This document shows positions 33,776 to 64,000 of a stretch of DNA of 64,000 nt, piece after piece. Under the pieces are notes generated by a model that was given only the letters and a program-made list of their open reading frames with translations, was not told the origin of the DNA and ran no database searches. The DNA is from Psammoneis japonica (taxonomy: Eukaryota). A program made the translations under genes and the position numbers. Positions within the stretch are counted from its first letter, which is position 1, and every line of letters begins with the position of its first letter. The stretch covers positions 124,001-188,000 of the forward strand of contig QPGO01000080.1 of the NCBI GenBank assembly GCA_008632985.1, in the 5' to 3' direction.

Positions 33776-34426
33776 TTTGCACCCTTCGTTGAAACCTAGG
33801 GCCCTACAGGCTCGATTTATGCGTGTCTGAGTTCGAGTGCCTGCCTGGTGATGTGGGGTATTGAGTCATTCGGTGCATCTGCGGTTTCACTGCAAGTGCC
33901 GGCGGCCTCAAACGCAACATTCTGGAGTGTGTTCCCGTTTCCCTGCCGTTTCCTTCAAACATTTCCCGCTGCGCGAAGGAGGACGCGCGCTACTGCTCTA
34001 GATCGAGTGAATGGACATTCTCGCTGTTGCCAGCACGGCAGCACGTGCTGTAGCATGGTGCCGGCAGCATCTGAGTGCAAGTGATTACGTTAAGGATCTG
34101 CGTGCTGCGGCATTTAAAACAGCTCACATTTCCCACCAATGCTTCACTGTGTCATTTTGACATGCTGCCTTGGCTCACGTGCTCCAAACACTTGTGGGTT
34201 CTTCTCTGGCAGCCCTTGTTGGGGCCGTCAAACCGCTGTGACAGCTGCACATTTGAGATGCTTCAAATGCCACTTGTTGGCCTTTGCCCTCAAGTTTTGC
34301 TAAAATTGGCCTCATTGTGGGAGACAAGCTGCAAGCTTCGGGTGGTTGGCCAGTTGGGAGAGTGTCCACTGGTGGCAAAATCAGCTTCCGTTCGGATGAC
34401 ATCGTGCAGATGCAATCAAGGACAGC

Positions 34427-34571
34427 TGCACTGTGCTCGAAGAACAAGCACAAGTGAAAGTGGAGTGAGCAACAAAAAGTGAAAATTGTGAGACTAAAAT
34501 TTGCTCCATGAAAATTTGGGTTTCTCCGAATGAGTTCTCAATGGCCTGAAGTGCTTGCACTGCTCCTGCAG
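34427..34571 (+). repeat. Dispersed repeat, hypermutated copy of 1552-1694
   Basis: Same sequence with TA>TG/CA and CG>TG/CA changes. Confidence 0.85.
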
Positions 34572-37500
34572 CAACAGAGGTTGGAGGGAAATGGGTGGAA
34601 GAAAACAACAACTCCTTGCCATGCTGTCTCAATGGCAGATGAGCACCCATGCAGATGCCATCACAGGAGCCAAAAGAGTGGTGTTGTGACATTGGTGCCA
34701 CTTCCATCATTCTTGTGAGCTGATTGGCTTGAAAGCAAACTGCACAGCACGTCACACCCGGAGCCAATGACACACACAATTGTGCGCAACAAACTGGGAT
34801 CTTGTTCAAATCCTGTCACTCCCCAGTTTGCTTGAGGAATCAACAGTGACAGATTCAAAGTCAGATTGACCAGAGGCCTTGGGATTGAATTTCCAAAACA
34901 TGAGGGGATGGAGGAGATTCTTAACCTGGGAGTGACCCCAGTGCTTGCTGAGGATGTCAGCGGGGTTGCGGGAACCTTCGATGAAGTGAAAGTTGAGGAT
35001 GCCAAAGGCAATTGCCTCATGCACACAATGGAATGAGAGGGTGGTGTGTTGCTTGTGTAACTTGGAGTGCAGGGTTGTGAGGCTGTCCACAGCTGACTTG
35101 TTGTCCCTGAACATGTGGCATGTGTCGTGTGGACTGCAACGCTGAAGCAGTGCAGTGTGATGTGCAGATCAATGATCTGCTCAATGCATGTCCCAGCAGC
35201 AACAAACACAGATCCACAGGTGGTGGTCTTGACTGTGGCTTGTTTCTTGGAGAACCAATCAGCTGGGATGTTGAATTCCATTGGGTTTCAGCAGTTCTGA
35301 GGTGTTGAGCTTGGGGTGGTCTCCCTGTTCAAGAGGAGATGAGACGTTGGTGCAAGGTGTCCCCAAACAGACAGGTGTAATTCTCAACCATGCATTCAAT
35401 GTGCTTGCAAGGGGCAAGGCACGGTGTGCCATTAGAGTGGTGGGAGAAATTGCATCCAAGGTGGAGTTCAAGGGGTCCAGTGCCCTTGAGTTTGAACTTG
35501 CATTTCTCTGTGAGTGTGTTGATGAAGGACTGGGGGTCTTTCATGACAAAGGCCAGATCATCCACACACACTGATGCAATGCATTCACAATGGTTGCCAT
35601 TCCGGCATAACCAAATGTTGGGTTCAGCACAGCACTGGACAAATCCTTTGGCTTGCAGACAATCAGCAAAATGTTCATGCCACCTGAGAACAGAGCTGCA
35701 GAGACCACACAGAGCCTTGTGAATGACAAGGATGTGTCCTTCTAAACTGCCAAATTCTGGACCTGCAATGATGTGCAGCTTCTCCTTGGTTGTGGCTTCA
35801 AAGTGTGAGCATTGCCAACATGCCGGTCACCCAACTCTCCACCAGCTTGTTGAGTTCAGCTGGAAAGATCATCATTCAAAGGCCACTGAGGGACACTGCA
35901 CTGGAACAGATGCTGTTGATGGGCATGTCCGTGAGGTGCCCATCAGCAACAAGTCAGGCCTTGTGCCTGCCGTCTTGTTTGACGTTGTGGACAAGATGCG
36001 CCTGAACATTCTTGTGTCCTGTCGGGGCGCTAAAGTCCTTGTAGTGTCCGCAATTGTGGAACACCTTGCACTCATCCAGCTGAGTCATCTCGAGGTCAGT
36101 TGCATCTCCCCACTTGCGGTTGCCATTGTGCTTGTCAAGTTCCAGGGTGTGCTTGTAGTCCCATGGCACTTTGAATCCATGCTTGCAGCATGGCGCAGCA
36201 CAAAACAAGCACAGCTTGGCTTGATTGGCCATTCGGAATGGCTTCTTCTGGCAATGAGCTATCGTACAAAAGCATTTCCAACCTTCAGCATTGAGCAAGC
36301 CATGTTCACGGGCACAGATGGCACAGGTGACAGGATCACCCTTGGTGATGATGGCAAGGGGCTCAGACTTGACCTCCTGTTCTCCCATTCAAGCATGACA
36401 TTGCAGCTTGAGCCCTTCCAAGAGGGGTCATGAGGTCACAACAGCCCTTTGTGTGAAACAATGCACTGGAATTTCCTGACAGCAGTGTCTTTGTTCTCTT
36501 GCTTGAGGTGATGAATGATGTCATTGCAGGCAAGGATTTCCTTGCATTCATTGTTGTCAACTGAGCAAATGAACTTGACGAGTTCCGGGTTGTCTCCAAT
36601 TTCCCAGTCATGGTCCTTGATGGCCTTGATGATGCAGGCCCTGTGATGTTGTCCATCCTCTTGTGGCTTCATGAGGAAAGTGCATCCAACGACATCCTCG
36701 GGGTCAAAAACTGGCATCTTGGGCATCCTGATCTCCTCCCCATCTGATGCTGAATCTGGCAGATCTACAGAATCATGGTGGGATTTGACAATGGGTGCAA
36801 CAGACTCTCCATCAGGAGGTTCAAGATGCACAGATTGTGCATTGATGGGTTGTGATTGTTGGTGGAATGGACGTTGGACGGGCATGGAATCTTCTGGGTG
36901 TCATCAGAAAGAATCTTGAAAGTCATTTGATGGCCAGTGTGTTTGGCAATGCCAACAAAGTGACCACGGAGCTCACGGGATTCAGATGGCCAGTCGGAGT
37001 CATCCAAGTGGCAGCACACGGGTTCTCTCCATTGGAAGCAGAAGAGGGGGCTAATGTTGGGAGTGGAGCCAGACAACACCTCAGTGGGAGTGTGTCAGTG
37101 GAGCTTGGCAGATGCTGTGTGATTGAGCAGAAAACACACACACATGAGAGCAAGGAGCCAGGTGTGGGCAGGCAAGCAAAAGCAGTCCATGATGTTGTCA
37201 GCCATGTTTTTTGTGGTTTGGTGGCATTGTTTGGCAAAGTTCTGGTGCTGCAGGTGGGGTCCGCTCTGCCAGCTGGAGATGAAGAGGGCACAGAGAATGC
37301 AGAGAACTTTGTTGCTGATCTCAACTTGGGTGCAATCACTGATGAGCTTGGGCAGAGCACCGCGGTTGTGGATGTTGTCCTCAAGGGTGTTGACAAATTC
37401 CTTGTCCATCTTGGTGCCACACACATCTGTGACAAGGGATTCCACACTAAAGAAGAGCTGTGTGCTGATGCATCCAGAGTCAATGGTGGGAGTGTTGGAG

Positions 37501-40500
37501 CACACTGTGTTGGTGGCAATGGGTTTGTTGCATTGGCGGACATTCAGGGCCAGGTTGGGCAACTTGCAAGCTTTTTTAAGGTGCGTGCTGGCAGGCATGC
37601 GGGCGCATTGAGTTGTGCAATCAAAGATGTGGTGAACAGTGTTCTTAAGGAGGAAGCCAAAACAGGGGCAAAGGGACTCACAGTTGGGGTCCTGAGGCTT
37701 GATGTTGTGCTTGTGGCACTCACAGAAGAAATCAGACAACAGAATGATATGATCATCAAGCATGGGATCAGCAAGCATGGTGTTGTGCACAATGTGATGG
37801 TGATGACAGTTGCTGAACTCCTCAAATGGATTGACAGCAGGGTCATCCTGAAGGTCGGATGCAGCATCACACCAATTCTCATCATTGGTGAGCTGGTGAT
37901 TGAGCACAGATGGGTCCCAAGTGTCGTCGCCGGTGAGGATGACATGAGGCAGATCATCCCCCTCAGGAGTCGGTGTGTGGGCGCATGGCAATGTGTGGCA
38001 ACGCAGCTGCCCATGATGTTGATTGGGATGATGCAACCATTGATGGTGGTGGTGTGTTGCAAACCATGAGGAACCTTGGTTGACTGGTTGTTGATGTCAT
38101 GTTTGCACCATTCAAGTTGGCCGCAAGAATGGATGGTCTTGCCCTTTCCAGTGCAGATGTGCTGGTGAAGGATGGCAATGATGGGGCCACATTGTGTGTT
38201 GATGACAGTGCCGGCTGTGACAATGGGAATGTCAACAAGCAGATGGTTGTCAATGCCCTGCACATCAACCTGTTGGCCAGAGCATGCAATGACATGAACA
38301 CAGTCACCAGCCATGCCACCATTGGCACCACAATCTGCAAGAGCTCCCAAGCGTGTTGATGTGCAGGTCAAAGCAGAGTGGATGATGCTGTGGTTGCCAA
38401 CGTGGCAGTGGATGTGGCCGTTGAGCTCAATGTCAGTGCCAGTGCTGGGTGGGAATTTTGCATTGGGTGGTTTCTCACCAGAGCAGGCCAAAGGAGATTT
38501 AGCGGGCACAAGAAGATGCTGTAGATCCCCGGGTGGCAAAGGCTTGCACTTTGACAGATGCACCAGGATGGGGTTGTCATCTGCCAAGTCATTGGTGCCA
38601 GTGGGTGGCACAGGAGCATTGGCAAGGTCGTGAGTGTTGGCAGATAAGTCAACGTCACCATTGCTTCCCAGAGGGAGGTTGCGAAGGTTGACAGCCTCTG
38701 ACTCAAGGATGACAGCCTTGGTGGTGGAGCTGGGCAGGGTGTCCCAGATGTGCTGGTGGTCCGGCGGGCACAATGCCACTGTTCCTTGGTGAGGGAGGGT
38801 CCGCGAATGTGAGAGGCGCAAGCCTGGATGACATCAATGTTGCTGTCTGTGTTGAAGAATGGGTCATCAGGGTCATTGGAAGCCAGGTCATGGGTGCACA
38901 GATGGCATGGCATGGGGTGCAAGAGGCCGTCTTGGGTGCAAAAGTGCTGCCGCACTGTGCCGCCACAGAAAGTAGAAGGCCACAACATTGCTCATGAGTG
39001 AGGCTCTTGCCAGTCTGCGTGCAATGCTGGTCGGCTTGGTTCTTGACTGAGCAAAGTTCTTCAACAGGATGTGCAGCATTTTGGACTTTGAGCTGGTGGA
39101 TTTCTCACCAGAATGGGCCAAGGGAGGTTTGTTGGGCAAAAGGAGATGCCGCAGATCACCAGGCAGCAAAGACTTGCACTTCATGCAGTGCGCCAGGATG
39201 GGATTGGCATCTGTTGTGTCATTGGCATTGTTGGTTGGCACGGGAGCTGAGGTGAGGTCACAAGTGTTGGCACACAAGACAACATTGCTGTTGCTTCCCA
39301 GACAGAGGTCATGAAGGTGTTGACAGCCTCGACTCATGGCAGTTGCTGGAATGGGCAGTGCACAAGCCAAGGATGATGGTCTTGATGAGCTGAGGGAGGG
39401 AGCATCAGATGTGCTGGTGATCTGGTGGAATGCAATGCCACCATTCCTTGGTGAGGGAGGGGGCACAAGTTTGTCAAGCACAAGCCTGGATGATGTCAAC
39501 ATTGATGTCAATGTTGAAGAATGTGTCATCATCAGGGTCATCAAGGGCCAGGTCATGGGCACAAACCACATGGTGTGCAGTGCCAGAGGCCATCTTGGCT
39601 GTGCCATTGTGCTGCACTGCCGCAGAAAGCAGGATCCCACAACATTGCTTGCAGGAAAGGCTCTTGACATTCTGTGCACTGCACTGGTTGGCTTGGTTTT
39701 TGACAAAATGGAGTTCTTCAACAGGGGGTGAATGGCATTTTCCAGCATGACACATGTCTGGCCAGCAGAGAAACAGTCCATGGAAGGAGTGAGAGCTTTG
39801 CATTTGCAGAGTTGGTCTTGCCAGTGATGCATGAAGGCCTGGGTGGAACCCTTCCAAGTGCCATCACCAAGATGGGTGGTGGTGATGTGCGTGAGAAGGG
39901 TCAACAACTCAAGTGACGCATGGGTGGAGGCAAGGATGCACTTGTGGAGTTTGCTGCACACAGTTTGGGCATCAGATGAGTCCTCATGTTCGTGAACAAG
40001 TGCTTTGCCCTTGTCAGTTTGCAAAATGTGCTCAAAGACGGCAAACATGTGTTTCTGTTGCTCGTCAAACAATGCCTTGTCTTTTGCTGTGGAGGGCTTG
40101 CACTTCAGGTCAAGAATGCAGTCAATGTCTTGAGGACAAGCCTGTGCAACAATGGAGGTGTGCCAGGTGTGCCACTGTTTGTCAGACTCAAGAGTTGCAA
40201 AGGTGAGCGGGTCATGTTTGATGCCTTGTTTGAAGTCACGAACTGGGTCACACGGTTTGGGAGGCAACATGCCAGCCACAGGACCAGATGGGGCAGTGCC
40301 TGTGGAGAGAGACATGATGCAATTGGTGCCAAGATGACAGTCAGTGAATTCCTTGTGGGCAAACAGATTGGGGTTGTTGCTGACACTGGCGCCACTGCGT
40401 GCTTTTACATGGTGCAGAGACTGATCAATGCCACAATCATTGCTTTGTAACTGTGCAGCAAAGGTGTTTGGTTGGCGCCATCATTGTGAACAAGGGCACC

Positions 40501-40892: not shown

Positions 40893-40957
40893 TTCACAGC
40901 GGAGTGGTTCATCGCAACCATTGGGCAGGAGGCCAGGGGTTCGAAACCCTGAGTGGG
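40893..40957 (+). promoter_or_regulatory. tRNA-derived Pol III A/B-box segment inside the TRIM
   Basis: A-box-like CAGCGGAGTGGT (40897) and B-box GGTTCGAAACC (40938) within a CAGGG/CCCTG stem. No clean anticodon arm. Confidence 0.6.
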
Positions 40958-41050: not shown

Positions 41051-41665
41051 GAATCCAGCGGATTCCCTGGTCCCGCCTCGGACGCCAGCAAACTCTCCGT
41101 CCAAGATGGATGTGCGACTGGTTGCCGCTCGCGCAGCCAAACTAGTGGGGGACAGTTGTGAATTGCAGCGTGTGGCGGAAACGTGCATTCTAGAGTTTGA
41201 AATCCGGGTTGCAGATTCGCTTGAGTGGAGGTGCACAATCCTGCCCGGGAATTGGGTGGGTGGGAAAAGCAAAAAAGGATTCAAGCGGTGTCATCGCCGC
41301 CATCATCCTCTCAACCTCGGTTTCCTGGGGAAGGAATGAGACAGGAACCGAGGCCCTCCATCCAGCGATCCCTGACTTCTGCTGCATTCTAGATTGACGT
41401 CAGCAGCCCCGGTCTGTCAGACGCTCGGCAGTTGGCTCATTGCCTTCTGCCCCAATGTCTCGCCAACGAGAATCCAGCGGATTCCCTGGTCCCACCTCGG
41501 ACGCCAGCAAACACTCCGTCCAAGACAGATGTGCGACTGGTTGCCGCTCGGGCAGTTAAACTGGTGGGGGACAGTTGCAAACTGCAGCGTGTGGCAGAAA
41601 CGTGCATTCTAGAGTTTGAGGTCCGGGCCACGGATTCGCTCGAGTGGAGGTGCACAATCCTGCCC
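41051..41665 (-). repeat. B1-A2-B2 terminal repeat block of the YR retrotransposon
   Basis: GAATCCAGCGGATTCCCTGGTCCC...CACAATCCTGCCC at 41051 and 41470 flanks the A repeat. Confidence 0.9.
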
Positions 41666-41886
41666 AGGTCGAACACTCACAGTTGCATGTGACAAAGGGA
41701 AATGCAAAGGAGAGTGCCATCTTGGAGTGGGAGTGGGCGTCCAGAAAAAAAGAAAAGGAAAAGAAAAAGGGAAAAAGGCGCAAATTGGCAAAATTTTGTG
41801 GTGCCAAAAACCATTTGTGCTGTCATTGGAATGGATGCAGTGGACGCACGAAGTGGAAAAGAAGATTGGAAGTAAAGGGTTAAAGA

Positions 41887-43000
41887 TTAAAGTGTGTTTG
41901 GCATGATGCCAAGGTCTGCCATTGCCTGGCTCTGCTTGTTGGACAGAATGGCGAGATTGCGCAAGCAGGCGACGAAAGCGCGCGAGCGCCAACGCAGGAG
42001 AAACTGGATTTGGTCCTCCAGAGAAGCCCATGGCGCATAGAATGCAGCAAGCACCCACACGGACAGAGTGCGAAGACCACTTGGAAAGGATCTTTGCATG
42101 AGATTTCCTGCACGGATCCAGGCTAAACTTGCGACTGGCAACCGTCTGCATGACACGGGAAATGTCACTTGCAGTCACAGAAAGCACAGTGCCATCCTCA
42201 CGACGATGCAAGCTCAGGGGTGTGTCCTTGGATGACATGCCAAAAAGCCTGTCAAAACATCGTAAGATGTCAAGAAACAGGGTGACGGGGCTCATGTCGC
42301 AGCGTGCACTGTCAAAGGTGAACAAACGTGCTTGCCATGCGACCCATTCTTTTGCCAAGAGAAAGTGAGCTCAAGACGCAATGAATCCGGGTCTGTGTGC
42401 CGAAGGGCTTCCGAAAAGCTAAGCGGGCGCAAGTTAGAGTCAAAAAGCTGGGCGTCCTCAAGGGTGAAAGCACACACTGTTCCATTGGGAGCAACATGCG
42501 GGTGGTGTGGGTCTGGGCGATCGTTGTGTTGCGCCCATTCCGAGAGGCGAAACCCACCGTGTGAGCCAATGCCGAACCAGTCGCAACACACGGCCCATGT
42601 CGATGGTGAAGGACTCGCAGCGGTCTGGGACTCCATCCCAGCGACGGCATTCCACAAGCACTTGAGCGACACACGGGGCAAATTCCTTGTCATGAGCCAA
42701 GAAGTGCCTTGGATCATTGTTGCACAGGTCACTGGGGGACCACCTGGGAAAGCGCTTGATGAACGATGCCGCGTCCAGTGGGTGCTTCGCAATCGTGTCG
42801 CCATGAACAGTGCGATGTGCCAAGGTGCTGCCGGTGGCAAGGTGTGCGGCGCAGAGCGCCATTTGGCAGTTCCTGCGCTCTTGGGAGGCCCTGACGAGGA
42901 GCCAGTCATCCGACAGACCTGGATCATAACTGAAAATGAAGCAATGGATTTGCCGGCTACGAATCGTCCCAAGTTGCTTGGAAGACTTGGGGGGGCCAGC
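41887..43000 (-). pseudogene. Tyrosine recombinase of the YR element (frameshifted; catalytic Tyr>Cys)
   Basis: GGFRLSEWAQ (first Arg), WQKNG, SSHSVRVGA (HxxR), and LRWRSRAFVACLRN, where Tyr is expected at the Cys. Confidence 0.85.
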
Positions 43001-53549: not shown

Positions 53550-55704
53550 TGCCGAGTTGCCCAAGCGCGTCCTTCTGGGCTGTTCTTGACCCGCAAAAAG
53601 GCCTGAATGACTCGCCACACCGCTGGCAATTTTTTCGGGTTGGTCATGAGGAAGGCGTCTGATGCGAAGGTAAAAAAGATCCACAGATTGCCCGCTGCAG
53701 TGTCAACCATTTCATGGGAATCCATCATGCCAGTGAAGCACAGGTCTGTGGTTTTCTTGTTTTTCTCAGTGTCCTCCTCACCGACCTGCTCTTGACGAAG
53801 GAGAGTGCGACCGTTCTCAATTCGCACAAGGTGCTTGACACACGATTGGTTGGGCTTGGCGAAATGACAGATGCCAAGCTTGTCCTTGACAGAGTCTGGG
53901 TCAACAATGGGAGGGACTGGCGCCCATCCACACGAAATCAGACGCGCAACAAAGGGAAGATCCAAAAGCTTGATGTCAAAATCTGCACAACCATCGATGT
54001 GTGAGTCCGAGGTGGCACGATCCTTGACATGCTGCGTCATGTTCTCAATGGCGAGTGCCAAAGCACGAGTGCTTTTGGAAGCGCGAACAACAGACAAAAA
54101 TTCCTCGCACAATGGGGGAGCAGTGACAAGGTTGTCTGTGACGTGACCGTCACTGTCCACTGCCTCAACAATGTGCGAGAAGAGCAGATGGCGACGAAGG
54201 ATGACGTCATCCGTCTCCTTGCGTTGGTCGTGTTCCGAACCAGTGAGGGTGTTCTGAGGTTTGTCCAGATTGTGGCGAGTGACTGACTCAACTGTGGCTC
54301 GGACAAGGCGTTCTAGGTCTGGGGTGCCAGCCACTGGTGGCCCTCCGGTGAAAACGGATGCAGGGTCCTTGTCTTCTGCAAGACGAACAACAGCTGCAGT
54401 GCGCAACTCCTGGAGGATGGAGTGCACATTGTCGAAATGGACCGTGTGTGGGGTGAGCACGGTGTGCTCGACAGAGGGACCTTGGCAAGCTGGTGGTCTT
54501 GGAACACATTGACAAACTCAGCCTCTTTGAAAAGATCATCGCATGCCTGGAGGGATTTGCCTGAATCATGCAAGATCAGGTGACGGACAGCAGCATGCCA
54601 AGAATGAAAGGGAGCCGAAACGGGGACAGAAGCAGGAATGTCGTCCTCAATGGGGACATCAACCCAAAGGTGCTCACCCAGCGCCAAAGGGCAAGCGAGG
54701 GGAATGCAAACAAACTCAGGCATGTCGTCAGCAGAGGCGGCGTCAAACCCCAGGCGCTCTTGGCCGGGTGGGACTTCATTCCCGTCCTCATCGGGCTGAG
54801 ACGCGCCCAACGTCGCCGGGTTCTTGTCACTGATGGGGAGATCAAGGGAGTCCGCAATGTGTTTGGGAACGAGGGTGACAACACACTCATCCAGCATGTC
54901 CTCAACCTTGACAGGGGTGATGCTGTCAAAGGTGTTCCCAAGGCTCGCCAGTGCAATGGCTTTGTTGAAAGCATCCGAGGAAGCGAGGGTTGGGCACGTG
55001 AGTGCGCGTAAAAAACCGTCGACCACTGCGATGGTTTGGATGGTGGAACGCGGATCATTGACCATGGCCGAACGGATGGTGGGGCTGATGGTGCGAGACA
55101 TGGCGGTGGCAAGGTGGGCGATTTTATCAGGGTCATGCTTGAAGCTGGAGGAAACAGCCGGCAGCGCACCGGCCATCTGACGGGCGAAGTCACCCAGGGT
55201 GCTGGGAGAAGCTGGCATCATCGACGGGGAGAACTTGAGACGAAAGGAACAAAAACGACGTTGTCGAAATTGCGAGTGTTTCGAATGGGTGCAACTGAGA
55301 GAAAGGGTTGAAACTCCCAGCACCACCTCAGTGAAAAGTTGGCGTGGAGGGGTGTGTGGTGCGCCACATCATTGTGGAACGATGATGTGGCTCAGGAAAT
55401 TGCGCTCGACCAATGGAAGATGACAACGCGTCCATCGTCTGTTGCAATTACGACGATGGGAAAGGGAAATTGTGGCGGTTGGAGTTCACGCACGCGTGGC
55501 AGACGTGTCGTTGAAGTGGTTGTTAATTAAATTTGTCAATTCGGCAAATGTGTGTGTGCAGCACTGAAAGTGACACAAGGCATGATGACTTGAAAGAAAC
55601 AGCCGTCAGTTTCCATTGTTGATGTGGCACCTAAAACCAAAAGCTGTTGCATTCACTCTCCAGCTGGTGAGGAAGGAACGAAGCAGCTGCAGGGAACGGG
55701 CAAG

Positions 55705-56100
55705 ATGGTGGTGACCAGGGAGTGGCTTGTGGGTGACCATGTGGAAATGACGGGCGGCAGCTGCGGTGGGCAGAGTGGCACGGTGGTGAAGACAACCCCA
55801 TTTTGTTTGAGGGTGCGCCATGAAAGGCCTGGAGACACCCAAGGGCGATTAAAACTATCAGAAAAACGTTTCTGTCGATTGGTTGCTGTGACACCGGCAC
55901 CGAGTGCTCCCGTTCGTGAGGAAACAGGGAACGCTGCTGGATTGGAGCAGCTGGTGGTCGCTGCGGCGCGCATGGTTGGAGAGAGTGAAGCGGAAAGCTC
56001 CGAGATTGACGAATTGTCCAGAATGTTCAGGGTGGTGGCGATTGCAGCAAGGAACACACGACGGAGAGGGGCCCGAGACGAAGCTGAAGAAGGGAGGTAG
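55705..56100 (+). CDS. Antisense accessory ORF of the YR element with a KOW-like motif
   Basis: LVGDHVEMTGGSCGGQSGTVVK matches the KOW pattern GDxVxIxxGxYxGxxGxV once ATA>ATG and TAC>TGC are reversed. Ends in TAG. Confidence 0.55.
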   Translation: MVVTREWLVGDHVEMTGGSCGGQSGTVVKTTPFCLRVRHERPGDTQGRLKLSEKRFCRLVAVTPAPSAPVREETGNAAGLEQLVVAAARMVGESEAESSEIDELSRMFRVVAIAARNTRRRGARDEAEEGR

Positions 56101-56384
56101 AGGGAAGCCGAGTGGCAGGCGATTGGGACAGGTGCAACGCCGGTGTGGCAGGCGAAAATGAGTTTAAACACAGCCGAGCAGCAGGCACAATGGAAAAGGC
56201 CGAGTGGCAGGTGCAATGAATGAATAAATCCAACTGTAAAGTTGAAAAATTAGAGGAGCCAGAGGGCGATGTTCAGGTGGCCAGCGGGCCTGAGCCAAGC
56301 AAGGCCACACGATTCGATCCAAAGGAAAAGAAAGGCAGAGCCAAGTGAGGCCACATGATTCGATCCAAAGGAAAAAGGAAAAAC

Positions 56385-56578
56385 AAAGGATTCAAGCGGC
56401 ATCATCGCCGCCATCATCCTCTCAACCTCGGTTTCCTGGAAGGAATGAGACAGGAACCGAGGCCCTCCATCCGGCAATCCCTGACTTCTGCTGCATTCTA
56501 GATTGACGTCAGCGGCCCCGGTCTGTCAGACGCTCGGCAGTTGGCTCATTGCCTTCTGCCCCAACGTCTCACCAACGA
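56385..56578 (-). repeat. A1 terminal repeat of the YR retrotransposon
   Basis: Matches 41274-41469. Confidence 0.9.
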
Positions 56579-57711
56579 ACCGTGCAGTGTCAGCACACGC
56601 CAGCAAAGAGCCGCATGGACGCATGACACATGGGGAGGAGTGCAATGCACAGCTGCTGATGAGAGTTGATGCATCACGGCGACGTGTTGCAGCCTTTAAA
56701 TGTCACAAAGGGCATGACAAAAACAACCTTTTGTCTGCATGCACACTGCAGAAGCTGCCAGGCCATGCCACCCCATTTGCAGTTAAGTGCCAAGCTTCCC
56801 GTCCGGTCTGCAGACTTGTGCTGGCATGTCCAAACCCGCAGCTGGCGATGCTTTGGGTTGCTTGCAAGCAGAGCAAATGGGTTAGAAGCCCCTGCAAACA
56901 AGCCAAATAGATGTGAACAAGACCCCCAGACCTTTGTCATTTTGTGTTGGTTGGATGACCCGATGCAACGCTGAGGACAAATGAACAAACCTGGGAAATG
57001 CACCCTGAATGCCAGCGCAGACAGCAATCACACACTGCTTCCTCTCAATTGTCCTCGTGGACCTGGCAGGACTGTAGAAGACCGGCAGTCCAGTGCAGAT
57101 GTTTGGCAACAGTTTGGGCAGCAGCCCCTGAAGTCAGAGTGCATTGTGTGCGCAAGAGGGTGCACGGATCTGGTGTGATGAGTTGGTCTGCCTGCCAATC
57201 AAGACAGGATTCAATGAGGGGAATCCAGAATCTCAGATGTGTGAGAAATGGAGAATTTTTGACCAACCTGATGTCTGTTGAACAGATGCATCCAGTGATT
57301 GGAGATCTTGGAAGGATCCAAATGTGCTGATCCAATCCAGATGTCCAGCAACAAGGAAGTTGTGCAAGTGCTTCCACTGCCAACAATGTGCATCGTCAAA
57401 AAAAATTCTTGATGAGACAATGATGAATGCTCAATGGATGAAAATGAGCAAGACTGTCAATCTGACAGAAACTGAAGGAAAGCAGGCTGCTGTCTAAATG
57501 GCAGATGAGCATTGAGCATCCATGATGTAGATGCCGTTGCAGGAGCCGAAAGACTGGTTTTGTGACGTTGGCGCTGCTGTCATCATTCTTGTGAGCCAAC
57601 CGGCTCAAAAGCAAACTGCATTGCACATCGCGCACAGAACTGAGAGCACACACAATTGTGTGCAATGAACTAAAATCTTGTTCAAGTCCTGCAGGATTTG
57701 AACAAGATTTT

Positions 57712-60700
57712 CACGAGATGAGCCATCATCGCAGCAATGGCGGGAACATCAAGTGCCATGTGTCTTGACATTGCACTGCCATTGGGGACAAAGCACAATT
57801 GCATCCTTGGGTTGCTTGATCGGTGCACCAAACATGCAGAAAGCATGAAAATGATTGAGTTGAGCAAACTCACCTTGGTGCCACTGGTCCCATGTGGACA
57901 GCTTCTTGAGGTGATTCCAGGTAAAACCATCAAGCACCTCTTCCTCTGGAGTGACAGCATGGGAGGACATTGCACAGATGTTGAAAGCACCTTGATCACA
58001 ATCAACAGTTGGTGACAGTTCATGTTCCACATTGTCCAGAGCAGAGAAATCAACATCAGGATTTTGTGCAGCTGCAACAGCTTGCACATCTGCAAAGGAG
58101 GAGAGAAAACATCATGTTCAGCCAGTGCTTGTTGAAGCTGGCAAGAGTCCAAATGACATTCTGGGGCAAAGACAACGTCAAACAAAGGGACAGTCACATC
58201 ATGCAAGTGCTGGAGTTCATCAACATCCAACAAGTGTGCACGGTTGAAGATCTCATCTGTCTTCAGAGTCACACCATGCAAAGGATCCAATGGGGAATGC
58301 TTCATTCAACGAACACTTGAGCGTCTTTTCAAAAGGATTGCAAGTGAAATGAAATCTTGCAACCAATGCTTCCTCCTCCTCCACAGGGAAAGGTTTGCCA
58401 CTCTGCGTTCACTGAAGATGAACAACATTTGGAGGGATCTGGTCATGGGGGAGATCATTCATGCCTTCATCAAACTGAAAGTGCACACCCATCTTGACAA
58501 GATGCAAAGCAGGATCATGCCACACATGATGTTCTTTGTGGTGTCTGGCATGCAGCCAAGGAAGATCCCTTTTGCAGAGTTGTCACACATCTTTGCTGGG
58601 CACTTGGAGTTCTTGTGAGCCCAGACACAGCAGCCAAAAGTGCAGAAACCAGTGAAGTCCTCAACCTGTCCTGCAGCAAGAGCAACAGGGGAAGCATCTT
58701 GATCTTTCAAAGGGATGGCATTCTTGATGCGAATGCAGTGACAGAAAGCATGCAGCCAAAACTTGATTGGCAAACCAGCGCCAATGAGGAGTGCTTGAAC
58801 AGCATTCTCAATGGTTGAATGGCTGTGTTCAACAGGTCCATTTTGGTGAGAGGCATTGGTGCCAGTGGGGCACACAGTGTGCCAAAAATCATGTTCAAAA
58901 AGTCTTTGCACCATGGAGTTCCTGCACAATTCACCACTTTGATCCACAAATGCATGTTTGTCTTGACATTTTGGCAAGTGTTCCTCCAAAAAACGGCAAA
59001 TCCACGCAATTGGTGTGGCTTTGGAGACACGAGCAGAACCATGGAGACAATGGGTTTTATGATCGCACACCAACAAGTCCAACCATTCAATCCAACATGA
59101 TTGGCAGCACGGTCTTTGTTCTTCAACTTGACACCAGAGAAACACAAAACTAACAGCAAGTCCTTGATGTGCCTGCGTTGCAGCATGTGTGGAATTGGGG
59201 CCAGCCAGACTCTTTGTCTGCTTTGCTTGAATGCAAGCAGGACAAGTGTTCAAAGGGGAAGTGCCATGTGCAAACTTTGGGACACCCTTGATGCACTCAC
59301 ATGCATTGTGCAGGCAATGATTGCTGGGATGGCCAAGGCATTGGTGCCAGAGCAATTGTTCCACATTGGCCTTGAGGGATTGAACAGGGACCTTGTCCTC
59401 AAAGCAGCTCTCAGAAGGAACATCTTGACATGCTCAGGGGATGAGCTTGCATTGTTCTTAGAGAGCAGATTTTTGATTTTCCTTGCAGGTGTCAACCACG
59501 TGCACCACCACAGCATTGCATTCCTTGGCAAAGTTGGGGTCAGCAGTCTTGAGATCCAATGTTGCATGATCAAGGTCATCATTGGACTCAGGCAGCATCA
59601 AAGGATGGGCAAAACCTTTTCCATTGATCAGCTGCCCATGGATGATGAGGGCTTGGCTGGAACAAAGGCAATGTTTGGCGACATGCTTGCAGGTTTGTTG
59701 GTCATGACATTTCAACAGACAATCCACCATGAAATCATGTTTTCAGCCGCCATTGGGGCAGAATGAAGGGCACGTTTGTCTGCCAATGTTGATTGGAGCT
59801 TAGGGTGGCAACAAGTGCAAATGGCAACATGACCTTCCTTGGTGGCAGCAGGAATGCACAAGCACCCAAAACTGTGTGGGATGGCAGTGGCACCAAGAGC
59901 CAGGTTGACCTTCAGAGGACAAGGGTTGGCAGGGCAAATGCTTGACAGTGGTGAAGGAGATCTTTATCACCAGCACATGAGACATGGGCACTGGCATCAA
60001 ACTGTGCACAACATTCTTTGGAAGAGAAGTTGATGGTGTTGACTTCAAAAATCTTGCATTCAGCATCAAACAGAACAGCCAGAGACATCCAAGAAGGAAC
60101 AGATGGAGATGTGCAGATGGAGTTGAGGGCCGCAAAACCAGATTCAATGGGGCACTCCAAGCATTCAAGTTCAAATGGCGCCAATGTTTCCTCTGCCCTC
60201 CCCTGATCTTGATCCCTCCCCATGTCTTGACATGGCTCCATGGGATTTTTGTCAGGGAGAGTCATGACATCAGGTGACATCGGAGCATCAGGTTCCTGTT
60301 TGCTGAAATTGACTTGCCAAGAAAGAGGTTTGTTGGTGGAAGGTGATGGAACTGTGAGTCCCTCTTTCACAGTTGCCTCACTCTCATGGGTGTTGTCTTG
60401 GGAAGGAGAGTGCAGAGGCGGCATTTTAGATCCAAAACCAGCTGCGACAGCCCGCGTGAAAATCCTGAGCGGGAGTTTCAGTTGAAGGTGGATCTTGCTT
60501 GTTCTGTCCAGCAGGCAAGATTCCTTGATTGCCAGTGAAGACAGCAGCCCATTGAGCAGCCTCATGCTTCAAGAATTGACAAAAGTGGATGTGAAAACCC
60601 TTGAGGTGCGGGTTGTTCAGAAGAACAGGACAATGATCAAAAAGATGATCATCATTGCAAATGACACAGTTCCATTTGATGGCCTCAGCCGGGGATGCCT

Positions 60701-62450
60701 TGAGCTTGAACACAGAAGCCAAACAGGTGTGATGCAAAATGCAATCATTGTCTGCAGTTGGGAGTTCCATGGCATCCAATTCTTTGCATGGCATTGCAAA
60801 AGCATTGTTGCACAGAACAAAGTGCCCTCCACAACCTCTTCAGCAGGTGTGTGTTCCGGCTCTGGAGGAGCAAGCATTTCAAGACCATTGACATCAGCAT
60901 TGCAATGAGGGGTCTCAAAACGGTCATGGGGTGGCAAGGGTTTGAGACATGGTTGGCTGGTGATTCATGAGCAAGAGGGCCATCAGCTGGGCTGACAAAT
61001 GAGCTGAGAGTTTCCACAATGTGTTTCTTGGCGCACTTGTGCTGGTGGGCAGGAGAGGTTGGTTCAACCTCAGCAACATGCATGAGGAACTTTGAGCACT
61101 TGGTGTTCTTGACAAAAACAGTCATCTCACAATCATTGTCTGGCGAGGAATCAGAGTCAAAAACAAATGCGCGCAGTTGCAAAAAATCCTTGAAGATTGC
61201 ACAGTGGTTGTTGAGGGACAAGTTTCCTTGTTTGGGATGCAAGTCAACCACACCAGCGGCTTCATCACAAAAGGCCAGATGAACTTGAAAAAGCATCTGT
61301 TTCAATGCATTGCAGCTGTTGCCATGGCAAGAGGTGACAATGTGACAAAGCTTGCTGTTCTTGGGGAACATGTCTGGGTGCAAAAGTGGCTTGTGCAGAG
61401 CATGCAATGCACGTGCATGCATTGTGGCAAGTCATCAGTGGCAGCATTGCCAATGGTGAAACCTGCACATCTTGTCCATGGTTTTGCTTGAAACACCATA
61501 AAGGATGCACACAGCATCCACAATCAGAGGTGTGCCACTGAAAATTTTGATGCCATTGACGAATTCCATGGGGAGAGTTGTCATGACACAGGCTTGGTTC
61601 ATGGAGAAGAGCCGTCCCATGTGGCCTGGATTCAGGGTCATGACAAACAGGGATCAATCTGGCAAGATGAGTTGGTCTGCACCATCCAGGTGGTGCACAC
61701 AGCCACTCAAGCAGTTCTTCAGGGAGTTTTGAAGGATCACTTTCTTGGCAGCTCTGTGGTCAAATCTTGCACAGACATTGCTTGGGAGCTTGTCCGGATT
61801 GAAAAGAAATTTCAATGACAAGGACATGTTGACCAAATCAATGACATTGACAGAACCTGAAGTGGCAGCTGCTGGTTGTTGCTTGGGAGTGTAGACTGGA
61901 GGGCATGGAGTGTCAGAGGACTCGCTCCAATCCCTGAAAGAATGTTGCATCATGGGGTGAAAGTGGAGATGCGTGGTGCCAACAAGAACAGCAACCTTGG
62001 CATGCTTGTTCTTGAGGGCTTGCTCAATCCTGCAGTTGATCATCTGATGGGACAAACAAGATGCTTGGTCCATTGAACCAGGACTGACAACCTTGAGGGA
62101 TGCTTTCTTGAAGAAGGACACGACTGACAGTTTATCGGCAGGATCAAAGGTCTCCAGGAGAATCAATTCTTAAAGAACACATTCCCGAAGTAAGTCAATG
62201 ATGTTGTCCTTGGAGGTTGCATGGTTGGGATCATCAAAAAATTGATCCAGATCAACAATGACACCACTGCAAAGATTGTTGAAGTGCTTCGCAACCTCAT
62301 TGTCACCACAATGTGGTTGAAACACAACAGGGATCTCTCTGAGGCAGCCATGAGTGTGCTTCTTGGGGGTCAAATGCACCATGGTTTCTGAGGTGCACAA
62401 AATTTTTAGTCATGCACATGTGGAAATCCAGCACAGTTCTACAGAGCCTG
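57712..62450 (-). mobile_element. Degenerate Ty1/copia element of another lineage (gag, protease, pre-integrase, integrase, start of RT)
   Basis: QFDASAHVSC protease-like, LWHQCLGHPS..CPACIQAK, HQNGPVE, LPIKFW, FCTFGCCVW, and GEFAQL..VLCPQWQCNVK. Confidence 0.8.
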
Positions 62451-63130
62451 TGTGCCAATGAAAAAATCCTCTTTCAGGATCAAAATGGTGGCAGGCTCAT
62501 TCAGCTGACAAACCAAACAAGAGCCATGGTGGGAGAGTTGCAACACAGAGGAGTGACAACCTGGTGAGGCCACAACCTGACAGAATGCCAATGGTGAAAG
62601 CAATGAGCTAAAGAGCTCCCTGCAGACTGGTGACAGTGGATGACATGTGTGCCAGTGAGAAAGAGTGAGAGAAGCAGATCTTGGATGGATGTGCTCATCT
62701 GTTCAATGACGTCTGTCCGTCATCGGTGCACAGTCTGACCATGTGCCATGGCAGGTCTGCTGACAGGCACTGCTCCTTTCTGCTTTGCTGATGCATGACT
62801 CAACAGCAGCAAGCAGCAACATGTGCATTTCAAGCTGCAAATGCACAACTTGATGCACCCACTGCCCTTGCTGCATTTGCCACACATGTGAAAGATGGTC
62901 CAATCACTTCCACCTCACCCACCCACTGCCCATGCTGTGCACCACCAGCTTGGGAATGGGAGATGGTTGGCATCAATGCCAGCAACCTCTCTCAGTCCAA
63001 AAGCTGACACCAACCAATGATGTCTGCTTCTTTTTTGCAAGGCCAGGGTCTGCTTCCATTTGGCATTTGTCAGTTTTTTTGTGCCCCCAGCTCTTTGGAC
63101 ACTTGTCTTCAGTGCTTGAAGAGGTCAGAG

Positions 63131-63211
63131 CAGCCATGCAAAACAAACCCCCCATGTGCACAGAGGGGAGGCACAGACCACCATCTCCTGTTGGTCTCCC
63201 ATCTGCACTGA
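63131..63211 (-). repeat. Inverted partner of the 2011-2099 repeat
   Basis: Reverse complement matches 2011-2099. Confidence 0.6.
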
Positions 63212-64000
63212 ACCCACCAAGTGAAGGCAAGCTTGTCTTTGACAGACCAGGCCCAAGCAAAATTTGCTGCCTTTACCAGATTCAATTCCTTGACATCCGC
63301 CAGGCATTCCCATGTTGTCACACCTTCTTTCCAGTGCATGCATGAGTTCCATCCCTTTGTTGTCTGTGTGATGTGTTGGCAGTCTGACCAGATGCAGCAG
63401 TTTTGGGCACCTCAACATTTAACTCAAAGATGTCATGGACCATGTTTGACTGAATCAGTCCTCCAGCTTTTGAGACAGCCATCCTTGTGGCCTGCTCCAT
63501 GCTTGGATTTATGAACAGCTCCTGTGGAAGTGTTGGTCTGTTGATGGCAGTCAGCTTTCCTGGCCTTTTTGCAAAGCTGCTTGATCATCTTTTGGGCCAC
63601 ATTTGCTGTCACAGCATGGAGGGCACCATCTTGTGTAAAGAACAAGGACAACACTTCACGTGCCAGGGTCTTAGAGATTTTAGAAGACAGATGTGTGCTC
63701 AGCTGTTGGACATGCTCAAGACTTGAGCACAGATGTTGCCTGACCTTGACTTGATGGAGAAAAGCACAATGTTAGAGTGCACTCCCTTTGCAATGCACCT
63801 GTGTTGCAGTTGGCAGTCATTGATGCAGAGCATTGGATTCAATGTCATCCTTCTTGCACCTCACTGAGCCATGACCTTGGCTGCATTCTTGGCATCCTTC
63901 AAGCTGAAGATGTGGACCAATTCTTGGCCAAGCACTCCTGCTGTTCTTCTTTTGTCATTTTGAGCAAAGAGAGGACAACTGATGCAAGCAGCATGCAATC
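63212..64000 (-). mobile_element. Fragment of another degenerate CoDi-like copia (integrase to RT linker)
   Basis: WKEGVTTWECLADVKELNLVKAANFA...AFTWWV matches the linker WKDGTESWVSLKDMKESHPVETAEFA...AFRWWM at ~4650-4780. Confidence 0.65.

Follow-up and report, generated by a model that had tools for sequence, protein, structure and literature searches.

The DNA analysed here, called the window, is a 64-kb stretch in which tracts of unaffected host DNA lie between blocks that are poor in the dinucleotide TpA (Table 1). The two GT10 fucosyltransferase genes belong to the tract that was used as a control. Most of the 1-kb bins between 24,001 and 33,000 have a TA observed/expected ratio (O/E) of 0.46-0.79, with lower values at 24-25 kb (0.37) and at 33-34 kb (0.29), the latter adjoining a block border. 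The two GT10 copies show 242 differences, of which 19 are TA<>TG/CA and 5 are TG<>CA. For the intact GT10 protein, none of 72 matches in a collection of 5.8 billion proteins that includes NCBI and UniRef records exceeds 41% identity. The ORFs of the other host tract match Lipase_GDSL_2 at E 6e-5, which is under the Pfam cut-off, and Atlas features with scores of 0.81-0.85 suggest, as a lead only, that they encode SGNH hydrolases.

Table 1. Host genes, mobile elements and TpA-depleted blocks in the 64-kb window
Feature	Position	Strand	Remarks
Decayed Copia copy in TpA-depleted block	1900..6900	-	pol remnants 2846-6065
Unaffected host DNA	6900..10600	.	TA O/E 0.35-0.67
SGNH/GDSL-like ORFs	7102-8169; 8470-9408; 9383-10543	+; -; -	
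TpA- and CpG-depleted 13-kb block	10600..23700	.	TA 5.8/kb, CG 19.2/kb
Unaffected host DNA, used as control	23700..33900	.	Two inverted GT10 fucosyltransferase genes and spacer
GT10 fucosyltransferase genes	24108-25472; 30720-32171	+; -	Glyco_transf_10 E 1e-58 and 1e-59
Old Copia copy, TpA almost erased, CpG decayed	34581..40480	-	TA O/E 0.07, CG 0.23
RT-RNase H retroelement, 3' part	41262..46439	-	RT-RH remnant 41932-45783
Younger Copia insertion	46440..53549	-	LTRs 46440-46716 and 53274-53549, TG..CA ends, 5-bp TSD TGCCG
TpA-depleted DNA, CpG still fairly high	53550..57400	.	TA 5.5/kb, CG 48.9/kb
Heavily TpA- and CpG-depleted block	57400..64000	-	TA 3.8/kb, CG 9.1/kb

Over the whole 64 kb the O/E ratios are 0.26 for TpA, 0.61 for CG, 1.49 for TG and 1.52 for CA. 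In about 45 of the 64 kb, TpA reaches 0.07-0.24 of the expected frequency, matched by a surplus of TG and CA; the genes stand at 0.59. Depleted blocks, defined by 500-bp windows with rho_TA<0.3, extend over approximately 1.9-6.9, 10.6-23.7 and 33.9-64 kb, and within the last of these TpA partly recovers at 44-44.9, 47.8-48.9, 49.4-50.4 and 52.1-53.7 kb. The "heavy" blocks (31,104 nt) have O/E ratios of 0.07 for TA, 0.31 for CG, 1.72 for TG, 1.77 for CA, 1.16 for AA and 0.91 for AT. At 41-57 kb, the "intermediate" block (16,001 nt) has 0.24 for TA and 0.87 for CG, and genic or normal DNA (15,802 nt) has 0.59 and 0.89. The GC content is 0.44 in genic DNA versus 0.49-0.55 in depleted DNA. The borders at approximately 1,900, 6,900 and 23,700 are step-like and at most 100 bp wide, with 0-2 TA per 100 bp on one side versus 8-10 on the other. 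The affected DNA is confined to elements with these sharp borders and the neighbouring genes are spared. A sequence-only reading of the window had described TpA as near-absent in such blocks and ordinary in the genes, with TG and CA in excess, and both the bins and the windows agree with it; its estimate by eye of about 25-30 TAs in 57,000-64,000 compares with a count of 26 in 57,001-64,000 (5, 0, 5, 1, 2, 6 and 7 in successive 1-kb bins). The sum of TA, CG, TG and CA per kb is conserved: mutated copies have 235-253 and relatives 245-249. Reciprocal TG<>CA swaps, which the same reading had seen between paired copies and had taken to mean that both strands are hit, are indeed the top tandem double difference in seven of the eight repeat pairs compared, and 59 of them separate the old from the young Copia copy. 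The exception is the repeat pair at 41262 and 56370, where AA<>GG is ahead of TG<>CA (2 vs 1).

Every affected block that can be classified is a retroelement; Copia is represented by at least three copies, and there is one RT-RNase H element. The copy at 1900-6900, where TA O/E is 0.04-0.24 per kb, gives tblastn matches to the Copia proteins P0073 and P0078 at 25-35% identity and matches the Copia profile at E 1e-10 to 1e-36. A Copia integrase-like remnant is located at 58462-59433 (gag_pre-integrs, E 3e-7). The younger Copia insertion has gag-pol frames at 50644-52449 and 46667-51370, aligns collinearly with P0073, a relative of 1,859 aa, from residue 1 to 1848 and is a Ty1/Copia element by its LTRs with TG..CA ends, its 5-bp target site duplication, its RVT_2 match (E 6e-26) and this collinearity. 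Its summed k-mer depth is 70,000-220,000 versus about 60-280 in most flanking bins. The Copia proteins of the window have no homolog above 72% identity in the protein collection used for GT10. The younger Copia appears to be nested inside the RT-RNase H element, whose other half is probably 53550-56578; the repeats at 41262-41469 and 56370-56578 are 93% alike. The ORF at 42295-45231 has 1,585 homologs, and RT-RNase H profiles match within 41262-46439 at E 5e-289 and 1e-19. An AlphaFold model of the homolog P0313 (pLDDT 88) has the reverse transcriptases of foamy virus, CaMV, MMLV and Ty3 as its top Foldseek matches (E 1e-9 to 7e-7). The stretch 53550-57400 probably holds the 5' part of this element together with other repeats, and no family match was found there with Pfam or NCBIfam. 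The ORFs of 10600-23700 match neither Pfam nor NCBIfam families, nor the Copia or RT-RNase H profiles. Copia, LINE, YR, Helitron-like and MITE-like elements had all been proposed as targets. Copia stands, while the window shows no signature of LINE, Helitron or MITE elements; Copia and the one RT-RNase H retroelement are what is recognised in it. The RT-RNase H element may be the proposed YR element; no recombinase was seen in Pfam and profile searches of the window ORFs.

The direction of change is TA>TG/CA and the change is restricted to TpA. Copia relatives from metagenomes have TA O/E 0.55-0.99 in all 21 loci counted, each of at least 1.1 kb. Tyrosine makes up a mean of 4.19% (sd 0.63) of 240 homologous Copia proteins versus 1.4% of the window's copy, and a second family behaves likewise, with 0.61% in the RT-RNase H ORF versus 3.09% in 24 homologs (minimum 2.24). 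At positions where at least 70% of 30 homologs have Tyr, the young Copia keeps 15 of 42, with 14 changed to Cys (TGY) and 10 to His (CAY); the other conserved residues have retention rates of 74-100% and Arg codons are intact. The old Copia keeps 2 of 59 Tyr (26 to Cys, 13 to His) and 15 of 112 Arg (25 to Cys, 21 to His, 12 to Gln). Polarisation used a consensus of 19 outgroups, and the counts of polarised TA are small (25-33 sites) and drawn from selectively conserved positions. Consensus TA is kept at 38% in the young Copia (n=29; 8 to TG, 6 to CA) and at 1 of 25 sites (4%) in the old one (17 to TG, 5 to CA). The fates of consensus TA in the two copies comprise 9-18 transitions versus 1-4 other outcomes. 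A>G occurs at 27% and 60% of TpA versus 0-7% at ApA, CpA and GpA, with ApA at 5-7%. T>C at consensus TpG is likewise raised (21-22%), a rise that may come from CpG states to which the outgroups assign the wrong polarity. The polarised comparison agrees with the earlier proposal of an A:T>G:C process at TpA on both strands of integrated mobile DNA, and it contradicts the idea that TA>TG/CA is no commoner than other A>G changes.

The decay of TpA precedes and is independent of a slower decay of CpG to TpG/CpA, which is seen only in older copies. The young Copia (TA O/E 0.34) has lost about 60% of its TpA (62% of consensus TA) with CpG O/E at 0.96, and it keeps 91% of CG at consensus sites (n=22); the old Copia keeps 1 of 15, and CG O/E in older copies is 0.03-0.4. 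The two processes are separable because the young Copia is TpA-poor with CpG and Arg codons intact. CpG decay through 5mC is rejected on these grounds as the source of the TG and CA excess, and the coupling of the TpA change to 5mCpG deamination that had been suggested does not hold for this copy.

The two LTRs of the young Copia differ in 17 columns, 12 of which are TA-linked and fall at 8 TA-derived sites. There are no other lone transitions, and 16 CpGs have survived in both LTRs. As a rough contrast, 12 of 26 TA site-copies have changed, while the 277 aligned columns of the two copies include 3 mismatched ones that belong to neither TA nor CG sites. The mutation hit DNA after integration and on both strands, a case that is made by one LTR pair (277 bp) together with strand symmetry. 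Element class alone leaves an RNA stage possible because everything classifiable is a retroelement. Tyr>Cys changes number 45 versus 27 for Tyr>His, where a model based on the 3' neighbour expects 25.9 His, and both strands are hit without extra strand bias; the model fits badly when T precedes the Tyr codon (7 Cys to 7 His). Survival of NTAN is strongly non-uniform (LR chi2 148-156 in the heavy blocks and 47-63 in the intermediate block). TpA is lost fastest when a pyrimidine comes next: the rate parameters for the base 3' of the edited A are 2.5 for T, 1.7 for C, 0.8 for G and 0.4-0.55 for A, the surviving TAs being possibly in part new ones that arose from the abundant CA and TG. In this survival analysis the 3'-neighbour effect is inseparable from an effect at -2, and the two are weakly separated by a comparison of 23/36 vs 17/44 (Fisher p=0.04).

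Fungal RIP changes C:G to T:A, mostly at CpA, and creates TpA and lowers GC. Like RIP, the changes seen here amount to a dinucleotide-specific, in-place hypermutation that inactivates repeated or mobile DNA and leaves host genes intact; unlike RIP, A:T becomes G:C, TpA is destroyed and GC is raised, and RIP is rejected on this basis. Deamination of 5mC has the same products, TpG and CpA, and is present in the older copies with their Arg>Cys/His/Gln changes. However, it cannot remove TpA, and most TpA is gone from the RT-RNase H element and from the younger Copia, with CpG nearly intact. The host deaminases ADAR and APOBEC3 also mutate parasitic nucleic acids, and ADAR likewise makes A>G changes. 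ADAR is described as editing dsRNA and accepting a 5' A, U or C, with only G disfavoured (PMC8586724), and APOBEC3, which acts on retroelement cDNA, as giving G>A (PMC12548423). In contrast, the changes here are at TpA only, on both DNA strands and after integration.

The closest precedent is a TpA-erasing signature already described in Bigelowiella natans in a 2026 bioRxiv preprint (Mettrop et al., bioRxiv 10.64898/2026.01.13.699255), so the earlier suggestion that the signature was undescribed does not stand. With no match above 41% identity for the GT10 protein and none above 72% for the Copia proteins, the window probably does not derive from the annotated B. natans reference strain. The preprint reports TpA>TpG/CpA arising de novo in viral inserts, with rates: 230 of 231 mutations in two hypermutable regions are A>G/T>C, all of these at TpA, and the rate is raised about 1000-fold and is episodic among lines. 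It also reports an enrichment of TE-type Pfam domains in TpA-depleted CDS and DNA editing by amphioxus ADAT2, and it proposes a DNA-acting ADAT2-like deaminase. As in its account, the changes in the window are TpA>TpG/CpA only, affect both strands of foreign integrated DNA and combine TpA depletion with CpA/TpG enrichment; they are almost only A>G/T>C, restricted to TpA and local, with host DNA normal. The NCLDV and virophage inserts of B. natans, as the preprint presents them, still retain many TpA (NCLDV rho 0.45), whereas erasure here is near-complete (rho 0.07). There the evidence is de novo mutation and TEs are inferred targets; here the targets are LTR and other retroelements. Beyond that account, the window adds LTR-pair evidence of action after integration, a 3'-pyrimidine preference and superimposed CpG decay.

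That TA was miscalled in parts of the sequence during sequencing, assembly or polishing has next to no probability. The window comes from one assembly, and the DNA runs found are all from one sample and study. An assembly artefact is nevertheless ruled out because contigs built from the reads show the TA-free sequence again: those assembled from k-mers of run X1 (0.5-5.6 kb, depth about 57-62) match 57.5-64 kb, with 0-15 differences in stretches of 0.5-2.7 kb, although X1 may be the assembly's own sample and hence is not fully independent. The effect also ends within 100 bp at element borders, forms a graded age series with CpG decay and gives coherent Tyr>Cys/His changes, and the metagenome protein P0241 bears the same signature. 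Very improbable too, if less extremely so, is the proposal that selection or lineage composition has made the element families TA-poor, for instance because UpA-cleaving RNases are avoided or because of codon usage. In its favour, TpA is mildly scarce throughout, even in the genes. The proposal, like the view that family members are equally TA-free, is contradicted already by the TA content of the relatives. Conserved and presumably functional Tyr residues have been lost at the general TA rate (36% kept vs 0.34/0.84 = 0.40), and differences have arisen between the LTRs of one insertion.

A more serious, though still unlikely, alternative keeps the same targeting and signature and changes the chemistry. 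Adenine deamination is replaced in it by, for example, error-prone repair or translesion synthesis where heterochromatic TpA carries a specific lesion or a modified base, or by a polymerase whose errors concentrate at TpA. The strand symmetry could arise from replication or repair errors, and the Pfam scans of the window contain no deaminase gene. Against it, the changes are nearly all A>G/T>C, and ApA is spared, a poor fit to the WA hotspot of pol-eta that had been offered as a candidate. Base-flipping enzymes typically depend on the 3' neighbour, and such dependence is observed here. ADAR-like A-to-I editing of retrotransposon transcripts, fixed by reverse transcription and reinsertion, is improbable, clearly more so than a different DNA chemistry. 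All classified targets are retroelements, and many TA>TG/CA states are common to much of the summed k-mer depth of the high-copy Copia family; some are therefore inherited through transposition. However, two LTRs that were identical when their element integrated now differ at 8 TA-derived sites, and edits of sense RNA would give only TA>TG, whereas Tyr>His is as frequent as the neighbour model expects. ApA and CpA are untouched, unlike the described ADAR preference (PMC8586724), and the B. natans target is reported to be single-copy, transcriptionally silent DNA (10.64898/2026.01.13.699255). ADAR-type hyper-editing is rejected on the LTR differences, the involvement of both strands and the sparing of ApA and CpA.

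We consider it likely that the TpA-poor blocks are integrated retrotransposons (Copia of different ages, the RT-RNase H element and unclassified repeats) that were mutated after insertion by a TpA-specific host process. The process acts at 5'-TpA-3' on both strands, replaces A:T by G:C and leaves TpG or CpA behind. It inactivates element copies by destroying Tyr codons, even though their frames remain open, since neither TAA nor TAG can be created. The leading candidate for the enzyme is a nuclear, DNA-acting adenine deaminase, ADAT2- or TadA-like, which would convert A to inosine, read as G, and would somehow be guided to silenced or foreign DNA. TadA, ADAT2 and the TadA-derived adenine base editors deaminate A after a pyrimidine, and a TadA-8e variant (A48E) is reported to prefer a "YAC" context on DNA (PMC13109818). 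The motif here would be T-A-Y, in which T serves no worse than C 3' of A, and not a strict UAC; the T-A-Y context is compatible with a TadA/ADAT2-like deaminase acting on DNA. Pfam scans of 154 ORF entries, some ORFs being entered twice, found no deaminase or polymerase gene in the window, in line with the sequence-only reading, which had seen no causative gene there. The process would be of the same kind as the TpA hypermutation of B. natans and may act as a genome defence. As a host mutation process it is real and highly unusual, and the genes beside the elements are untouched by it.

TpA is depleted far beyond chance in this DNA, which confirms the description given by the sequence-only reading. 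The observed/expected ratios (O/E) for the whole window are 0.26 for TpA, 0.61 for CpG, 1.49 for TpG and 1.52 for CpA. A 500-bp scan (rho, the same ratio, <0.3) places the TpA-poor DNA at about 1.9-6.9, 10.6-23.7 and 33.9-64 kb, with partial recovery of TpA in places in the 44-54 kb interior, and 26 TAs in total are present within 57,001-64,000. For further analysis the window was split into heavy blocks, an intermediate block and the gene-bearing rest. The borders near 1,900, 6,900 and 23,700 are sharp; within one 100-bp bin the TA count per 100 bp switches from 0-2 to 8-10 or the reverse. The sum of TA, CG, TG and CA is 235-253 per kb across all blocks and 245-249 per kb in unmutated relatives, and a near-constant sum is what interconversion among these four dinucleotides predicts. 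The erasure of TAA and TAG results in spurious long ORFs on both strands of the depleted DNA, where long open frames overlap, and the 64 kb window holds 66 ORFs that are 150 aa or longer.

Features of the window and their dinucleotide content
Feature	Position (strand)	TA and CG	Description
Heavy blocks		O/E: TA 0.07, CG 0.31	31,104 nt; TG 1.72, CA 1.77
Intermediate block	41-57 kb	O/E: TA 0.24, CG 0.87
Gene-bearing rest		O/E: TA 0.59, CG 0.89	15,802 nt
Copia remnant	2.8-6.1 kb		Pfam, tblastn, own profiles
Old Copia	34.6-40.5 kb (-)		Pfam, tblastn, own profiles
Younger Copia	46,440-53,549 (-)	TA 16.4/kb, CG 72.9/kb	Complete insertion; LTRs 277 and 276 bp, TG..CA ends, 5-bp target-site duplication TGCCG
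Copia integrase-like piece	58.5-59.4 kb		Pfam, tblastn, own profiles
RT-RNase H element	41262-46439 (-), probable other half 53550-56578	TA 10.7/kb, CG 63.1/kb	Interrupted by younger Copia
979-aa ORF of RT-RNase H element	42,295-45,231
RT-RNase H protein region	42295-45783 (-)		Matches a family of proteins of about 930 aa
Direct repeats	41262-41469 / 56370-56578		93% identical; probable terminal repeats
Segment beyond younger Copia	53.6-57.4 kb	TA 5.5/kb, CG 48.9/kb
Old copies		TA 3.8-5.8/kb, CG 9-19/kb
Tandem duplication in old Copia gag region	38466-39082 / 39095-39741		About 630 bp, internal; 71% alike
Overlapping open frames (example)	36846-38096 and 37547-38833
Host genes: GT10 fucosyltransferase	24149-25796 / 30398-32041		Two genes, inverted duplicate
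Host genes: SGNH/GDSL-like ORFs
TACGTATGTAC	6989-6999 and 23869-23879 (+)		11-mer, candidate promoter or boundary motif

The elements inside the depleted blocks are in part those that had been listed from the sequence alone. Copia elements were found, but the LINE, Helitron and MITE elements have no evidence from Pfam, NCBIfam, tblastn or profile searches. From 133 ORFs, taken from stop to stop and 110 aa or longer, Pfam returned Copia pieces only, and NCBIfam returned no matches from 13 ORFs. Our own Copia and RT-RNase H profiles had no matches in 10.6-23.7, 53.6-57.4 and most of 57.4-64 kb, and about 24 kb of depleted DNA is without a family match in Pfam, NCBIfam and profile searches. Scans of the window for tRNAs and Rfam families also gave no matches. 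An internal tandem duplication in the old Copia's gag has two halves with 21 TG<>CA swaps between them.

The 979-aa ORF has 1,585 homologues (E<=0.001) and no Pfam match. A PDB sequence search returned no matches with the ORF and chance-level matches only with the profile of A1, an alignment from its family (proteins P0313-P0462), and Pfam gave a single weak RVT_1 match (E 0.013) among the 46 members of A1. The AlphaFold model of one relative, P0313 (pLDDT 88), matches the reverse transcriptases of foamy virus, CaMV, MMLV and Ty3 in Foldseek with E-values of 1e-9 to 7e-7. This likeness of the model to retroviral-type reverse transcriptases identifies the ORF as part of an RT-RNase H retroelement. 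The family is large and was recognized by structure alone, and it may merit a profile of its own or form a new TE clade. Between the direct repeats lie the nested Copia, 53.6-56.4 kb and the RT-RNase H remnant. The repeats are probably the termini of one element of about 8.2 kb that was split by the Copia, the nesting being deduced from the repeat pair.

The direction of change was determined by comparison with relatives. The Copia family has many metagenome relatives with 60-72% protein identity; no match exceeds 72% identity and none is from a named eukaryote. Relatives' DNA was obtained from 3 loci in a metagenome scan and 19 loci in a genome-contig scan, and a scan of viral contigs for Copia relatives yielded none. 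All 19 genome-contig loci come from MAGs of bacteria or archaea, with marine, sediment and gut-associated bacterial ones among them, and are presumably mis-binned eukaryotic DNA. TA O/E is 0.55-0.99 in all 21 related loci of at least 1.1 kb and 0.32 in one 871-nt piece, so the family is not itself as TA-free as the copies in the window. When nucleotide changes were polarized against the 19 outgroups, 38% of outgroup-consensus TAs were retained in the younger Copia (n=29) and 4% in the old Copia (n=25). The lost TAs became TG (8 in the younger, 17 in the old copy) or CA (6 and 5). A>G occurred at 27% and 60% of TpA sites and at 0-7% of ApA, CpA and GpA sites, so TA>TG/CA exceeds A>G in the other contexts. 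T>C occurred at 27-30% of TpA sites, 10-12% of TpT and TpC sites and 21-22% of outgroup-consensus TpG sites; the raised value at TpG is tentatively ascribed to CpG states mis-polarized by CpG-poor outgroups.

The same change is visible in the proteins. The means of 240 homologous Copia proteins are 4.19% Tyr (sd 0.63), 1.11% Cys and 3.60% His, compared with 1.4%, 2.74% and 4.97% in the protein of the younger copy. At 42 conserved Tyr positions (Tyr in at least 70% of 30 homologues) the younger Copia has 15 Tyr, 14 Cys (TGY), 10 His (CAY) and 3 Phe, and all other conserved residue types are retained at 74-100%. The old Copia retains Tyr at 2 of 59 aligned positions, with 26 Cys and 13 His. It also retains Arg at 15 of 112 positions, with 25 Cys, 21 His and 12 Gln, a pattern characteristic of CpG decay. 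The RT-RNase H ORF has 0.61% Tyr versus 3.09% (minimum 2.24) in 24 homologues, 2.66% Cys versus 1.50% and 5.82% His versus 3.65%. Tyr>Cys, in which the coding-strand A is edited, was counted 45 times and Tyr>His 27 times. A model that considers only the nucleotide following the edited A gives an expectation of 25.9 His, so an extra transcription-strand bias is unnecessary.

The LTRs of one retrotransposon insertion are identical at integration. Those of the 46,440-53,549 insertion differ in 17 columns and one gap. Eight TA-derived sites, 4 with TA<>TG/CA differences and 4 with TG<>CA swaps, account for 12 of the 17 columns; a CGTG/CACG pair accounts for 2, and the remaining 3 are changes of other kinds. 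Both LTRs retain 16 CpGs and five TAs (one ATAG, three CTAA and one GTAA). Single-step CpG differences are absent from the pair and therefore the four TG<>CA swaps are unlikely to be CpG-derived. TA site-copies are changed in 12 of 26 cases, and 3 mismatches lie outside TA/CG sites over 277 aligned columns and two copies. Dated from this one LTR pair, the TpA changes were made in the DNA after integration, and both strands were hit. Among eight repeat pairs, seven have the TG<>CA swap as their most frequent tandem double difference; in the remaining pair, 41262/56370, AA<>GG is ahead by 2 to 1. Such swaps make up 5 of 242 events in the duplicated host genes.

Could the depletion have arisen in some other way? 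An assembly or polishing artefact was considered by comparison with the contigs of a DNA sequencing run, X1, placed on the window at 80% likeness or more. The TA-free 57.5-64 kb is matched by run X1 contigs of 0.5-5.6 kb at a depth of about 57-62 with 0-15 differences. The reproduction of this stretch argues against an artefact, which was dropped, although the run is possibly from the assembly's own sample. In the same run the summed k-mer depth of the younger Copia is 70,000-220,000, most flanking bins are at about 60-280, and bins at 56.6-57.7 kb, with other repeats, are at 3,800-43,600. The Copia family of the younger copy is thus very abundant, on the order of a thousand copy-equivalents. 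Variation between its members consists mainly of transitions (A>G 179, T>C 153, G>A 150, C>T 125; each transversion type 7-20). Among the 40 of 717 variant places listed, 9 are at TAs retained here, with TG or CA in 33-80% of depth, and 3 are at TG/CA here, with TA in 54-71% of depth.

Selection against UpA would also deplete TA, but the relatives keep their TA and the LTRs of one insertion differ at TA, and this explanation was dropped. Error-prone repair at the WA hotspots of pol-eta was dropped too, as A>G at ApA is low versus TpA. The sequence-only reading had coupled the TpA change to 5mCpG deamination. The copies in the window form an age series in TA and CG density, from the younger Copia to the old copies, and along it TpA loss saturates well ahead of CpG loss. 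The two are separable processes with common products, so coupling to CpG methylation is not supported and was set aside. A mutational, host-driven, TpA-specific change at the DNA level is well supported, and an editing enzyme is inferred.

The sequence context of the lost TpAs suggests what such an enzyme may prefer. Survival in the ten NTAN contexts is strongly non-uniform. TTAA and CTAA/TTAG survive best in the heavy blocks, and the worst survivors, ATAC, ATAT, ATAG and GTAC, have 1, 2, 4 and 4 left versus 94, 52, 95 and 52 in genic DNA, which is about half as much sequence; some surviving TAs are possibly new, having arisen from CA and TG, which are abundant. We fitted a two-strand model with a rate set by the nucleotide 3' to the edited A; with genic DNA or relatives as the baseline, it gave rates of 2.5 for T, 1.7 for C, 0.8 for G and 0.4-0.55 for A. 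This model is better than a uniform one with either baseline (LR chi2 148-156 in heavy, 47-63 in intermediate DNA), with the +1 effect inseparable from a -2 effect in NTAN survival by itself. Among 40 TA-versus-TG/CA differences between copies, a strand with a pyrimidine at +1 was edited in 23 of 36 opportunities and one with a purine there in 17 of 44 (Fisher p=0.04). The Tyr outcomes agree with the 3'-base model in total, and some preceding bases deviate. Together these results are suggestive of a T-A-Y preference.

The gene-bearing DNA has features of its own. The coding parts of the GT10 duplicate are 76-85% alike and the stretches just 3' of their ends are 94-96% alike, a pattern pointing to gene conversion or to a staggered history. 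Among 72 matches to the intact 474-aa GT10 protein, identity reaches 41% at most, and protein searches gave no close relative with a name. The annotated B. natans reference should have supplied a nearly identical record if it were the source of the window, and is therefore judged an unlikely source, at roughly one chance in five. In Atlas features, which are coarse or weak, GT10 is near arthropod and mollusc clusters (0.97) and an SGNH-like ORF is near a haptophyte cluster (0.85). The 11-mer TACGTATGTAC occurs exactly twice versus 0.02 expected. Both copies are located at repeat/gene borders, each within a short island rich in TA and CG, and lie about 110 and 240 bp upstream of + strand ORFs that start at 7102 and 24108, respectively; the 11-mer could act as a promoter or boundary motif in the host.

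To our knowledge, RIP was until now the sole well-characterized in-place hypermutation defence against transposons, and it is cytosine-directed. The sequence-only reading did not recognize an adenine-directed process as described. A full-text literature search on TpA hypermutation found one relevant work, a preprint by Mettrop et al. on mutation-accumulation lines of B. natans (bioRxiv 10.64898/2026.01.13.699255), in which both the inverse-RIP and the deaminase ideas are already present. Of the 302 nuclear single-nucleotide mutations in those lines, 231 were located in two inserts, one from an NCLDV and one from a virophage, and 230 of the 231 were A>G or T>C, all 230 on TpA. These mutations arose at about 6e-7 per site and generation, some 1000-fold over background, and in some lines only. 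Mettrop et al. also reported 124 TpA-depleted clusters and 324 low-TpA CDS, the latter enriched in reverse-transcriptase and DDE Pfam domains, and put forward an ADAT2-like protein as the editor. The same kind of system having been described there, a categorically new one is not upheld here. This first report of an adenine-directed counterpart of RIP, in 2026, concerns two viral inserts only. The window certainly adds a new target class and is probably a new host. What the window adds is that retrotransposons are direct and near-saturated targets, along with the post-integration dating by a single LTR pair, the footprint of Tyr>Cys/His, the suggestive flanking-base preference and the separation from CpG decay.

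Known deaminases differ in how well they fit. ADARs tolerate a 5' A, U or C (PMC8586724), whereas TpA alone is changed in the window, so an ADAR-type origin is a poor fit. A TadA-derived editor variant prefers 'YAC' on DNA, as stated in PMC13109818; the enzyme family is thus capable of such a context, which has no bearing on this host. The footprint also occurs elsewhere. P0241, a Copia protein from an 11-kb contig of a JGI metagenome, has 0.85% Tyr, 3.41% Cys and 4.87% His, as in the window's copies, and two other Copia proteins, P0220 and P0308, are intermediate in composition. The signature is therefore present in environmental DNA outside this assembly, from the same or other hosts. We tentatively put forward, at somewhat below an even chance, that a natural TpA-specific DNA adenine editor with a T-A-pyrimidine preference, amounting to an endogenous adenine base editor, serves as a RIP-like retrotransposon defence beyond Bigelowiella natans, with the window as a second host and Tyr-depleted, Cys/His-enriched metagenome Copia proteins (P0241 and, more weakly, P0220 and P0308) marking further hosts.

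The spurious ORFs of TpA-erased DNA would mislead gene finders, and Tyr>Cys/His decay conceals TE proteins from profile searches. The suggestive flanking-base preference could be used for testing candidate enzymes, and base editing would have a use for knowledge of any DNA adenine deaminase that is natural and has a defined context. If the host is one other than B. natans, the system is wider than reported.
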